A stretch of DNA of 64,000 bases from IMG/VR virus record IMGVR_UViG_3300025889_000071. The stretch is one strand, 5' to 3'. The position numbers and the translations under genes are program-made. Numbering within the stretch: the stretch's first letter is position 1; each line of letters begins with the position of its first letter. Positions 54,401-57,945 of this stretch are shown in pieces. Origin of the DNA: a virus (Duplodnaviria; Caudoviricetes). The notes under the pieces are model-generated. The model worked only from the letters and a program-made list of their open reading frames with translations. It had not been told where the DNA came from and made no database searches.

Positions 54401-55525
54401 ATGATAATCAGTGAAAGTGATGCCGTTTGGGCTGCGGATGAGTTCATCAAATATTTTTCACAAATGGGAAATATTGAGGACTATTTGCGTTTTGTTAAAA
54501 AGGAAGTAATCAAATCTACTAATTCTCTTGCACCTTTGCATGATGAGTTCTTCAATGAAGATATTCATCCACAAGAGATGGAGTTTGATATCAAATTTGT
54601 TGGTGCTAGATTTCAACAATCTATCCAACAAGAACACTATGTAAATCTTTTAAGAGCAGTATCTTCTCATAATAATGAGAGCAATATTCCTGGTAGGGAA
54701 CTTCGTTGGATGGTATTCGAAAAGAATACTCAAAAAGTTCTTGGATTTATTCGTTTTGGTTCTCCTACAATCAATTCCAAACCAAGAAATATTTGGTTGG
54801 GTAAAGCACCAAATCTTTCAATCTTCAATCGCCATGCAGCCATGGGATTTGTGATTGTGCCATCTCAACCGTTTGGATACAACTATCTTGGAGGTAAACT
54901 CCTAGCACTTCTCTGCTGCTCTCACTATGCCCGTGAGACACTCAATGAGGTCTTTGAGAAGGATATCGCCCTCTTTGAAACTACTTCGCTGTATGGGTCT
55001 ACTACAGATGCTTCTCAATACGATGGCCTAAAACCATTCATGAGATACAAGGGATTGACTGAAAGTAAGTTTCTGCCACTTCTTCATGATGAGGCATTTC
55101 ACAAACTTCATGACAGATTTACTTTACTCAATAACAATACTCCTCTGACAGATAATAAAGCATCATCTAAAAAGATGAAGCGTCAGACAAAGATGATTTC
55201 TATCACTCGTAACTCTCTCAAAGAGTATGGTTTGAATGAACAACTAGAGCAGTTTAATACTGTAATAAACACTGCACTTGCCCTGACACAAAAGAAGAGA
55301 ACATATTTCTGCGAGTATGGTTATTCCAATGTTCGTGAAGTAATTCTCGGTGAGCAGGATGAACTTGTGCTTGGCCCTAACTGGGATAAGTTCTATCTTG
55401 AGAACATCATTGCTTGGTGGAAAAAGAAAGCAACCAAGCGATATGAAAAACTTAAGGCAGAAGATAGGTTCAGAACTAAAGTCGAACTCTGGACAGATGA
55501 TGATGACATTCAAATTATTCGCTGA
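54401..55525 (+). CDS. DUF4338 / DruA-like protein
   Basis: PGRELRWMV.E..T.KVLGFIRFGSP, IVPSQPFGYNYLGGKLLALL, FETTSLYG. Confidence 0.6.
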   Translation: MIISESDAVWAADEFIKYFSQMGNIEDYLRFVKKEVIKSTNSLAPLHDEFFNEDIHPQEMEFDIKFVGARFQQSIQQEHYVNLLRAVSSHNNESNIPGRELRWMVFEKNTQKVLGFIRFGSPTINSKPRNIWLGKAPNLSIFNRHAAMGFVIVPSQPFGYNYLGGKLLALLCCSHYARETLNEVFEKDIALFETTSLYGSTTDASQYDGLKPFMRYKGLTESKFLPLLHDEAFHKLHDRFTLLNNNTPLTDNKASSKKMKRQTKMISITRNSLKEYGLNEQLEQFNTVINTALALTQKKRTYFCEYGYSNVREVILGEQDELVLGPNWDKFYLENIIAWWKKKATKRYEKLKAEDRFRTKVELWTDDDDIQIIR

Positions 55526-55905
55526 TGGAACTCAAAGATTGGTTGAACTCAATAACCTTTAATAAGGAAAACCTTATTAAAGAAAACCCCGATATCGTTA
55601 AACAATATCCTCCATACATCATCAATCGTTGTCTTTCTGGACACATAGATTGCATAATGTTTGCTAATGAGATGAATAGAAATCATCAGTTAGATAAAGA
55701 TATGCAATATTCATTTTATCTAAATAGTTTGAGGAAAAAGAAGAGATTCTCTCCCTGGTTAAAACAAGACAAAATCAAAGACCTTGAATACGTCAAGAAA
55801 TACTATGGATATAGTAATGAAAAGGCAAAACAAGCTTTGAAAATTCTCACAAAGGAACAAATCAACTTTATTAAATCGAAATTTGAGACTGGAGGAAAAC
55901 GATGA
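55525..55905 (+). CDS. gp62: Clamp loader small subunit gp62
   Basis: WLNSI, YPPYIINR.LS, KKRFSPW, YYGYSNEKA. Confidence 0.92.
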   Translation: MELKDWLNSITFNKENLIKENPDIVKQYPPYIINRCLSGHIDCIMFANEMNRNHQLDKDMQYSFYLNSLRKKKRFSPWLKQDKIKDLEYVKKYYGYSNEKAKQALKILTKEQINFIKSKFETGGKR

Positions 55906-56339
55906 GTGGAACTATTGAACCTACCGTAGAATGGTCGGCAGATAAAATGGTAGAAGTGATTCTGGGAGAACCAGATGACTTTCTCAAGGTTCGTGAAACA
56001 TTGACAAGAATTGGTGTTGCTTCTCGCAAAGAAAAGAAACTTTATCAATCTTGCCATATTCTTCATAAGCAAGGAAGATATTATATTGTTCACTTTAAGG
56101 AATTGTTTGCACTGGATGGCAAACGTGCTAATCTTACTGTAAATGATGTCCAACGTAGGAATCGTATTACAAGATTGCTTTCTGATTGGGGATTGATTGA
56201 TATTGTAAATGAGGAATTGATTCTTGATATTGCTCCTCTTAATCAAATTAAAGTTTTGGCTTATAAAGACAAGAACGATTGGATTCTTGAGCAGAAATAC
56301 AATATTGGGAAACGAACCAAAGAGCAGGAAACCGAATAA
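55902..56339 (+). CDS. regA: Translational repressor RegA
   Basis: DDFLKVRETLTRIG, LYQSCHILHKQGRYYIVHFKELF.LDG. Confidence 0.97.
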   Translation: MSGTIEPTVEWSADKMVEVILGEPDDFLKVRETLTRIGVASRKEKKLYQSCHILHKQGRYYIVHFKELFALDGKRANLTVNDVQRRNRITRLLSDWGLIDIVNEELILDIAPLNQIKVLAYKDKNDWILEQKYNIGKRTKEQETE

Positions 56340-56345
56340 AAAGAT

Positions 56346-56370
56346 ACGGGGTTCCACACCCCGTTTTTTT
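56346..56370 (+). terminator. Intrinsic terminator after regA
   Basis: acggggt-tccac-accccgt followed by a T-tract. Confidence 0.85.
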
Positions 56371-56377
56371 ATGGAAG

Positions 56378-56386
56378 TGTTATAAT
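56378..56386 (+). promoter_or_regulatory. Extended -10 promoter TGnTATAAT for hsp20
   Basis: tgttataat about 58 nt upstream of the ATG. Confidence 0.7.
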
Positions 56387-56391
56387 TAGTA

Positions 56392-56447
56392 GTGGATGCC
56401 GTAAGGGTCCACACAACGCAATCTCGCTTTTAGGAGAGCTACAAATG
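56392..56447 (+). promoter_or_regulatory. Two-hairpin 5' UTR, ROSE-like RNA thermometer candidate
   Basis: GUAA-capped hairpin 56392-56412; UCUCGCU pairs with AGGAGA (SD) leaving a bulged G. Confidence 0.6.
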
Positions 56448-56879
56448 ACTAACTTAATGAAGTATAATGCTGCCAATTTGGATCAGCTTCTAGACCGCAT
56501 AAGTAGGAATAGCATCGGTATGGACGAATACTTTGATCGTCTATTCAACCTTCACGAAACAACATCAAACTATCCACCATATAATCTAGTCACGGTCAGC
56601 AACGTAGAATCTAGACTGGAACTAGCACTAGCAGGATTTAAAAAGAAAGAAGTCTATGTCTACACACAAGATGGTAAACTCTTTGTCGAAGGTCAGAAAG
56701 AAGACAAAGAAACGGAAACAAAATATCTTCACAAGGGTCTGGCTCAACGGTCGTTTACACGAGCGTGGACACTCTCTGAAGACACGGAAGTTAGATCAGT
56801 TGATTTTGAGGATGGGCTTTTGAGTATTGTGCTTGGAAAAGTTGTTCCCGAAGCACACAAACGTAAGGATTATCTGTAA
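56445..56879 (+). CDS. hsp20: Small heat shock protein Hsp20
   Basis: NYPPYNL, LALAGF, YLHKGLAQRSFTR, DGLL. Confidence 0.95.
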   Translation: MTNLMKYNAANLDQLLDRISRNSIGMDEYFDRLFNLHETTSNYPPYNLVTVSNVESRLELALAGFKKKEVYVYTQDGKLFVEGQKEDKETETKYLHKGLAQRSFTRAWTLSEDTEVRSVDFEDGLLSIVLGKVVPEAHKRKDYL

Positions 56880-56918: not shown

Positions 56919-56947
56919 AAAAGTGTATCATAGTGATACACTTTTTT
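56919..56947. terminator. Perfect 12-bp inverted repeat, probable (bidirectional) terminator or operator
   Basis: aaaagtgtatca-tag-tgatacactttt. Confidence 0.55.
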
Positions 56948-56979
56948 CTATATAATTATGTAACAGTTTGGAGGAAACT

Positions 56980-57063
56980 ATGAACTTTACCATATCCACT
57001 TTATTATTTGGAACTGCTTCCACTCTTTTTTTCGGATGGCCAATCGCCTTCTTGGTTTCATAA
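56980..57063 (+). CDS. 27-aa hydrophobic micro-protein
   Basis: ggagg SD, TATAAT at 56951; MNFTISTLLFGTASTLFFGWPIAFLVS. Confidence 0.5.
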   Translation: MNFTISTLLFGTASTLFFGWPIAFLVS

Positions 57064-57220: not shown

Positions 57221-57265
57221 GGGGAGGTAACTGGCTAAATCCAGTTGACACCTCCTCTTTTTTTT
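57221..57265 (+). terminator. Long hairpin with T-tract
   Basis: ggggaggt-aactgg-ctaaat-ccagtt-gac-acctcctc followed by T-tract. Confidence 0.7.
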
Positions 57266-57273
57266 CTTATAAT
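57245..57273 (+). promoter_or_regulatory. Perfect sigma70 consensus promoter TTGACA-17-TATAAT
   Basis: Exact consensus, upstream of the gp43 operon. Confidence 0.85.
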
Positions 57274-57296: not shown

Positions 57297-57728
57297 ATGA
57301 CTGTCAAAATTTTAATGCTTAAATCTGGCGAAGATGTGATTGCAGATGTAAGTGAAATGGTTTCTCCAGAAGAAAGACTTCTTGGATATTTCATGAAAAA
57401 ACCATATGTAGTCAAACTTCATCATAATGAATCTTTTGAAGAAAAATCTGACCCTGATAAAAAGACTGAATTTTCTATTAAATTATATCCATGGATGCCT
57501 ATTGCCAAAGAAAAAACAGTCCCTATTCCTGTTGATTGGGTTGTATCTATGGTTACTCCAATAGATAAACTGGAAGAGTTGTATGTGAATAGTTTGGGTA
57601 AAACATGTAAAGATAAAGAAGACGATATTAACGTATGGGATCCTGGTTTGGATAGAAATGAATCTAATGGAGATGGAAAAAATGTCGGAAACGAAGATGA
57701 TCAAAGTGATTCTGTTAGTGAACAGTGA
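57297..57728 (+). CDS. Hypothetical protein (possible Sm-like fold)
   Basis: VKILMLKSGEDVIAD motif. Confidence 0.7.
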   Translation: MTVKILMLKSGEDVIADVSEMVSPEERLLGYFMKKPYVVKLHHNESFEEKSDPDKKTEFSIKLYPWMPIAKEKTVPIPVDWVVSMVTPIDKLEELYVNSLGKTCKDKEDDINVWDPGLDRNESNGDGKNVGNEDDQSDSVSEQ

Positions 57729-57945
57729 AAGATTAATTAGTGAAATTGAGGAAGTTGTTGCCGATATCGGCCAACCAGATTGTAAACTGATTAAACCACA
57801 TGAAATTTGGGAAGGTCCTAATTTGTGTCCATGGATGATGGACGTTACTAAACAGGATACTTTTATGATAAGCTCTGACAAGATTCTTACTCTTGTAGAT
57901 CCAACTCCTACTCTTCTTGAAAAATACGAGGACCTTATTAAATAA
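57697..57945 (+). CDS. Hypothetical protein (possible Sm-like fold)
   Basis: MIKVILLVNSERLISEI; TAATG coupled to gp43; start may be 57682. Confidence 0.65.
   Translation: MIKVILLVNSERLISEIEEVVADIGQPDCKLIKPHEIWEGPNLCPWMMDVTKQDTFMISSDKILTLVDPTPTLLEKYEDLIK

Follow-up and report, generated by a model that had tools for sequence, protein, structure and literature searches.

A short ROSE-like element with a predicted weak Shine-Dalgarno hairpin in the hsp20 leaders of T4-like cyanophages

The hsp20 gene of T4-like cyanomyoviruses is preceded by a short leader, which we read as a phage-borne short ROSE-like element with a phage-type promoter and a weaker Shine-Dalgarno (SD) hairpin. The leader was studied in a stretch of viral DNA of 64,000 nt (IMG/VR record IMGVR_UViG_3300025889_000071; the whole stretch is called the window below) and was compared with the leaders of related phages and of bacterial small heat-shock genes. 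On this comparison, we hold with high confidence that the leader is a homologue of the bacterial ROSE elements. It is also fairly probable, although distinctly less sure, that the leader works as a thermometer in infection, a reading which is drawn by analogy with the short ROSE elements of Pseudomonas.

In BLAST comparisons with phage genomes the window was assigned to a T4-like cyanomyovirus (Kyanoviridae), and BLAST and Pfam together gave the local gene order gp62, regA, hsp20. By Pfam, a clamp-loader subunit is encoded at 55525-55905 and the RegA translational repressor (regA) at 55902-56339, where the ORF ends at 56339. The hsp20 gene (56445-56879, plus strand) encodes an IbpA-type small heat-shock protein (sHSP) of 144 aa with an alpha-crystallin domain (Pfam HSP20, E 4e-14; 53 bits, cut-off 20.8). 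The best NCBIfam models for the window Hsp20 are IbpA and IbpB, both under their cut-offs (IbpA reaches 93.5 bits, and the equivalog cut-off is 212), and the cyanophage Hsp20 proteins also have their top NCBIfam scores with these two models. Among cultured Synechococcus phages, the highest identity is found with the Hsp20 of Synechococcus phage S-SCSM1 (85%). A terminator scan revealed intrinsic terminators on the plus strand at both sides of the gene, one 3' of regA (56346-56370; a 7-bp stem with five G-C pairs, then a T-run) and one 3' of hsp20 (56919-56953; a 12-bp stem, then a T-run), so hsp20 is a stand-alone unit, apart from the upstream operon. The DNA polymerase gene gp43 starts downstream, at 57945. 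The hsp20 gene belongs to the 25 core genes of cyanomyoviruses, and its role has merely been guessed at (PMC3037559).

Some further features of the neighborhood were recorded. A 374-aa ORF between the clamp-loader genes (54401-55525, plus strand) matches the Druantia DruA domain (Pfam PF14236, E 1.3e-9), and this domain family is unexpected inside a cyanophage replication module. Past the hsp20 terminator, at about 56980-57063 on the plus strand, there are a TATATAAT box, a GGAGG SD and an ORF of 27 codons for a very hydrophobic peptide. A perfect sigma-70 promoter (57245-57273, plus strand; TTGACA, 17 nt, TATAAT) is followed by two overlapping DUF6561 ORFs just before gp43, of which the first is a weak match (57297-57728) and the second a strong one (57658-57945). 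P-SSM2 has a strong manA RNA (Rfam RF01745, 181.6 bits; L082 854-1051) directly ahead of its hsp20 unit, flanked by regA and purL.

The initial annotation of this region, made from the sequence alone, had described two hairpins, an anti-SD, an SD and a bulged G at 56426, and all of them are present in the sequence at the coordinates given here. Hairpin I (56392-56412, plus strand; GUGGAU-G-CC-GUAA-GG-GUCCAC) is identified by the RNAalifold consensus, by covariation and by the alignment to the Rfam model ROSE_3. Its core at 56394-56410 consists of GGAU-G-CC and GG-GUCC, with a bulged G at 56398 and a GUAA tetraloop at 56401-56404. Next comes a CA-rich linker, ACAACGCAA (56413-56421, plus strand), which is predicted to be single-stranded from the leader alignment A1. 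In hairpin II (56422-56437, plus strand; RNAalifold consensus), the anti-SD UCUC-G-CU (56422-56428) pairs with the SD AGGAGA (56432-56437) around the bulged G56426, leaving a UUU loop. The AUG start codon of hsp20 is found at 56445, 8 nt past AGGAG and directly after the leader (56392-56444).

The register of hairpin II, as it had been drawn in the initial annotation, was recovered in the consensus of 125 leaders with its bulged G, but the energy model for the window itself slightly prefers another one. In this model, a 4-bp UCUC/GAGA helix with an 8-nt loop has -4.1 kcal/mol, and the bulged-G register with its 3-nt loop has -2.9; GGAG is covered in both. The single-sequence fold of the window leader is unremarkable and uninformative (z-score -0.52). 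The pattern CTCGCT-N2-12-AGGAG has one match in the window with 0.11 expected, and at least one match occurred in 10 of 100 shuffles. The case for the leader beyond chance is made by the comparative data and not by the window sequence alone.

For this comparison, 160 IMG/VR loci with close relatives of the window Hsp20 or of the Syn9 Hsp20 were used together with the cultured phages Syn9, P-SSM2 and ACG-2014f, and alignment A1 comprises 125 distinct cyanomyovirus hsp20 leaders. Run on these 125 leaders with no structural hint, RNAalifold gave exactly two hairpins with both bulged Gs and placed the SD in the second, where columns 46-48 and 50-51 pair with columns 61-65. The six core pairs of hairpin I are not broken in any leader, and compensatory changes were found at three of them, in 2, 19 and 50 sequences. 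A fourth pair varies among U.G, C-G and U-A, and the loop is a UUCG or GNRA tetraloop across the leaders. The covariation score of hairpin I is 0.132, compared with 0.059 for shuffled alignments and at most 0.038 with slid partners. The initial annotation had also included the outermost pairs in the element, and this could not be upheld: pair 13/34 (G56392-C56412) is formed in only 26 of the 125 leaders and pair 45/66 (U56422-A56437) in 34, so both are lineage-specific, as is the outer hairpin I pair 56393/56411.

Hairpin II is conserved in a different manner. The sequence CUCGCUU, with UCGCU within it, is invariant in 125/125 cyanophage hsp20 leaders, which bears out the proposal that a UCGCU motif faces the SD upstream of an sHSP gene; AGGAG is invariant or nearly so. 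With 2.00 bits per column, the anti-SD is as conserved as the SD and the AUG; for loop II and the spacer between SD and AUG the value is about 1 bit. The linker has a mean of 1.39 bits per column, and its ACACAA part is well conserved in cyanophages. G56426 (A1 column 49) is invariant and is predicted to be unpaired in the consensus structure. Because hairpin II is invariant within the phages, it has no internal covariation; the check on covariation across phage hsp20 leaders, which the initial annotation had proposed, thus succeeded for hairpin I and was silent on hairpin II. One leader with the SD AGGGG retains the pair as U.G. The window and Syn9 share 73% identity in the leader, 52% in the coding sequence and about 38% in the Hsp20 proteins.

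Many leaders have AGGAGC, which makes an alternative GCUUU/GGAGC register possible, and the energy model slightly favors it. Only the ROSE register accounts for an invariant CUC at columns 46-48; GCUUU/GGAGC does not. Columns 45 and 66 of A1 (window 56422 and 56437) were observed to co-vary, either as U with A, which is a pair, or as A with C, which is not. With C at column 66, the otherwise bulged G can pair in the shifted GCUUU/GGAGC register, and two SD-occluding registers may coexist.

Two other observations concern the parts of the leader outside the hairpins. The ACACAA linker (A1 columns 33-39, window 56411-56417) is nearly invariant in cyanophages and has no predicted partner, and the bacterial leaders lack it; it may serve as a standby site or as an enhancer. 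In seven leaders (L013, L034, L042, L044, L086, L110 and L119), a further long and G/C-rich hairpin separates the -10-like box from hairpin I; it is situated about 40 nt before hairpin I and brings the number of hairpins in these leaders to three.

The initial annotation had further claimed an extended -10 promoter giving a leader of about 55 nt. A -10-like promoter box, TGTTATAATTA (56378-56388, plus strand), is indeed present 5 nt before hairpin I, and TGTTATAAT at 56378-56386 reads as an extended -10 (TGnTATAAT). The window sequence TATAATTA has one mismatch from the late-type TATAAATA (the T4-type late promoter, an octamer centered near -10 that has no -35) and is at the same time a TGnTATAAT extended -10. 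However, the leader comes to about 51-53 nt, and the upstream TG of the window is not conserved in the family, where the box is aTAA(A/T)TA. In 118 related leaders, this box spans -12 to -6, counted from the first G of the hairpin I core, and ends 5 nt before the hairpin. The cyanomyovirus late promoter is NATAAATA (PMC2984593). Judged by its letters, the family box resembles this late promoter as much as a sigma-70 -10, and it fits both. Transcription is predicted to start at about 56393-56394. The T4 spacing from the box would place +1 at the first G of the hairpin I core, at about 56394, which would explain why the outer pairs of hairpin I are not conserved. The supplement of PMC5082946 assigns the hsp20 of P-HM2 to a middle expression cluster.

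The link to bacterial ROSE elements was found in both directions. The Rfam model ROSE_3 (RF02523) aligned to the window leader over all 69 model positions, with GAUGCC...GGGUC and the bulged G falling on the core of hairpin I and CUCGCU/AGGAG on hairpin II. The Rfam scan for ROSE, another check that had been suggested for this leader, therefore gave a full-length match, yet one whose score (21.8 bits; E 0.063 in a 1-kb scan) missed the gathering score of 43 bits, a curation threshold which is tuned on Pseudomonas and is not a biological criterion. At E up to 10, ROSE_3 was the one ROSE model listed for the window, with neither ROSE nor ROSE_2 among the matches, and no Rfam family reached its threshold on the leader. 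In whole-genome scans with ROSE_3, the top match was on the hsp20 leader in Syn9 (17.6 bits) and in P-SSM2 (16.7 bits), and there was no match in the genomes of HTVC008M and ACG-2014f. When 20 related loci were scanned with Rfam (E up to 10), the matches were manA RNA, a tRNA and noise and none was to ROSE, as the ROSE scores are too low to be listed in that search space.

In the other direction, a covariance model built from phage leaders only (R1) has a single match in the 64-kb window, with 69.6 bits. In 41 unselected Pseudomonas genomes, R1 gave three matches with E < 0.01 and all three are ibpA leaders, while the weaker ones are unrelated. The ibpA-type leader of Ferrovibrio terrae is the only genome-wide match of R1 at E up to 1 (24.7 bits), and the window Hsp20 is 36% identical to the protein of this ROSE-led alphaproteobacterial homologue. 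A DNA pattern was also derived from the phage leader, consisting of the hairpin I core and CTCGCT and leaving out all information on the SD and the gene. It has at least 120 matches in bacterial genomes, and downstream of at least 22 of them there is an SD with a start codon and a reading frame for an IbpA-type protein; among the matches listed, such ibpA-type leaders come from Pseudomonas, Stutzerimonas, Azotobacter and several Alphaproteobacteria.

When phage and bacterial leaders are placed in one model-fitted alignment, 98.9% of the cells pair. Phages have U-A as the inner pair of hairpin II beside the SD core, where Pseudomonadaceae have G-C and Alphaproteobacteria C-G, and this change is the only compensatory evidence for hairpin II, taken from an alignment whose fitting to the model biases it toward pairing. 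Since the models match reciprocally and the proteins are IbpA-like, the gene and its leader seem to descend jointly from an ibpA-type cassette. The assignment to a ROSE-like class in the initial annotation is in this way borne out by ROSE_3 and R1 and by the presence of the motif on proteobacterial ibpA leaders.

The comparison extends to pelagiphages. In HTVC008M and its relatives, hairpin I and its bulged G are preserved through many compensatory changes, and their anti-SD CUUUGCU, with the ROSE motif in its UUGCU form, stands opposite AGGAGG. From 10 pelagiphage-like leaders, RNAalifold recovered hairpin I and did not recover hairpin II, which is assigned in this clade by inspection only. 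A deeper pelagiphage-like clade (L180-L187) retains hairpin I and has CUGUCU in place of U(U/C)GCU, about 30 nt upstream of the ATG. Opposite AGGAGG, this CUGUCU would make a G.A mismatch and not a bulged G.

The two-hairpin ROSE elements of P. putida and P. aeruginosa were studied by Krajewski, Nagel and Narberhaus in 2013, and short ROSE elements of this design were experimentally shown to be thermometers (PMC3669281). In these elements, heat locally melts hairpin II and not hairpin I, hairpin II is sufficient alone for control, and hairpin I may stabilize the mRNA (PMC3669281). As the phage element has the same parts, we infer the same mechanism for it. The hsp20 mRNA would start at or beside the stable 5' hairpin I and would continue into the short and weak hairpin II, formed by the invariant CUCGCU(U) and the SD AGGAG around the bulged G. 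At low temperature, the ribosome-binding site would be hidden by hairpin II; on warming, this hairpin would melt locally, the 30S subunit could bind, and more Hsp20 would be made. Hairpin I would remain folded and probably shields the 5' end or aids the folding of hairpin II. The weaker phage hairpin would bring the response into a lower temperature range, suited to ocean hosts.

The predicted stabilities are consistent with such a shift. In the ROSE register, hairpin II of the 125 phage leaders has a predicted median of -2.8 kcal/mol at 37 C (-3.4 as MFE), compared with -5.8 kcal/mol at 37 C for 22 bacterial homologues. The phage hairpin is predicted at about -4.4 kcal/mol at 25 C and first reaches -5.8 at about 15-20 C. 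In Pseudomonas, more stable hairpins repress more strongly, over a range from -4.1 to -7.6 kcal/mol, and -5 to -6 kcal/mol is said to be necessary for repression (PMC3669281). The phage hairpin II stays under this value, so repression at ocean temperatures may be partial. We suggest tentatively, and as something that may well prove otherwise, that cyanomyoviruses and pelagimyoviruses, which rank with the most abundant viruses of the sea, carry a cold-shifted ROSE element on a core gene, with an SD hairpin perhaps tuned about 15-20 C below that of Pseudomonas, so that translation of the chaperone would track sea temperature in the course of infection. Lineage differences in loop II and in stem length might then set thermal set-points which match the niches of the host ecotypes.

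The modeled weakness of hairpin II fits an ocean-shifted thermometer and a weak constitutive damper equally well. According to the second explanation, the leader came along with the ibpA-type gene as a genuine ROSE relative but senses no temperature in the phage; hairpin I would stabilize the 5' end of the mRNA, and the weak hairpin II would act as a fixed, low-level damper at all ocean temperatures. It can draw on the predicted difference of about 3 kcal/mol between the phage hairpin II and its bacterial counterparts, and a 5' hairpin starting at the predicted +1 suits a role in stability (discussion in PMC3669281). It can also point to the folding of whole leaders, where no clear trend with temperature emerged from partition-function calculations between 5 and 50 C. 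In these calculations, the accessibility of the SD was inconsistent even for the bacterial leaders taken as ROSE-type, and for this reason whole-leader folding was set aside as evidence. Melting curves of hairpin II against an open chain were likewise discarded, as their midpoints were unrealistically high (>60 C), and only relative stabilities were kept. Any weak helix would do for a damper, however, and the exact CUCGCU with its bulged G need not stay invariant across phages whose Hsp20 proteins are about 38% identical. Moreover, weak and imperfect SD helices are what makes thermometers respond (PMC3669281). We therefore regard a fixed damper as an unlikely explanation, though one to be taken seriously, and keep the thermometer as the preferred reading.

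Another explanation takes CUCGCUU and the ACACAA linker as the binding site of a trans-acting factor, such as RegA, another protein or a small RNA, with the pairing to the SD being incidental. The position of regA directly upstream of hsp20 in most of these phages agrees with this, and so does the conservation of a CA-rich linker for which no pairing is predicted. On the other hand, the CUCGCU/AGGAG hairpin also precedes ibpA in bacteria without RegA, and the leader is still intact in Syn9, where hsp20 and regA are not neighbors. The inner pair of hairpin II covaries as a helix would, and no AU-rich operator of the RegA type is evident. A trans-acting factor as the main reason for the conserved sequence thus seems quite improbable. 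Finally, the pairing as a chance feature of an AT-rich intergenic region beside a strong SD can practically be dismissed, since the unremarkable z-score of the single fold and the appearance of the short motif alone in 10% of the window shuffles are contradicted by an element conserved with covariation in more than 120 leaders and by the two-way detection with bacterial ROSE elements.

With the thermometer preferred, it is probable that T4-like cyanophages, whose numbers in the ocean are very high, adjust their chaperone to temperature, as argued from the Pseudomonas analogy. If thermosensing is true, synthesis of the phage chaperone would be proportional to temperature, which offers a testable handle on the role of hsp20. 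ROSE is the most common class of RNA thermometers, and the leader extends it beyond Alpha- and Gammaproteobacteria to viruses that infect cyanobacteria and SAR11, in which the regulatory leader appears to have travelled together with its gene. The leader places the short ROSE class in viruses, with a phage promoter and a predicted weaker sensor hairpin. The initial annotation knew of no described phage ROSE element, and this agrees with a full-text literature search, with most subscription journals outside its scope, in which no phage ROSE element was found and no ROSE or other RNA thermometer was described on cyanophage hsp20. The phage leaders also provide a natural series of weaker ROSE hairpins for studying how the set-point of a thermometer is tuned. 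Temperature strongly shapes cyanophage-host dynamics in a warming ocean, and a direct viral thermosensor would be relevant to marine virologists.

Several known systems can be compared with the cyanophage leader. In the thermosensor of the phage lambda cIII mRNA, the translation start region restructures with temperature between two alternative structures. Both are found on phage mRNA, but cIII is unrelated in sequence and mechanism, belongs to a different gene class and has no ROSE motif. The classical ROSE elements of Rhizobiales and the ibpA ROSE elements of E. coli and Salmonella (Rfam ROSE and ROSE_2) are located in the 5' UTR of sHSP genes, with U(U/C)GCU opposite the SD and a bulged G. 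The phage leader shares all three of these features. The classical elements differ from the two-hairpin phage leader by having three or four hairpins and a longer final hairpin, which often includes the AUG (PMC3669281). The ibpA-type leaders of Alphaproteobacteria, for example that of Ferrovibrio terrae (L233), have a near-identical hairpin II (CUCGCUU, an AU loop and AAGGAG) and the same hairpin I core. The Ferrovibrio leader differs in its GC-rich flanks, its bacterial promoter context and a protein that is only 36% identical. The short ROSE element of Pseudomonas ibpA (ROSE_3, RF02523; PMC3669281) has two hairpins only, as in the phage, with the hairpin I core GAUGCC...GGGUC and its bulged G, a hairpin II of CUCGCU/AGGAG around a bulged G, an unpaired AUG and a gene for an IbpA-type sHSP downstream. 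In contrast to it, the phage element is carried in a virus genome behind a phage -10/late-type box and not behind a sigma-32 promoter, and the inner stem of its hairpin II has U-A and an AU-rich loop where the Pseudomonas element has a GA/UC extension and a G-C clamp.
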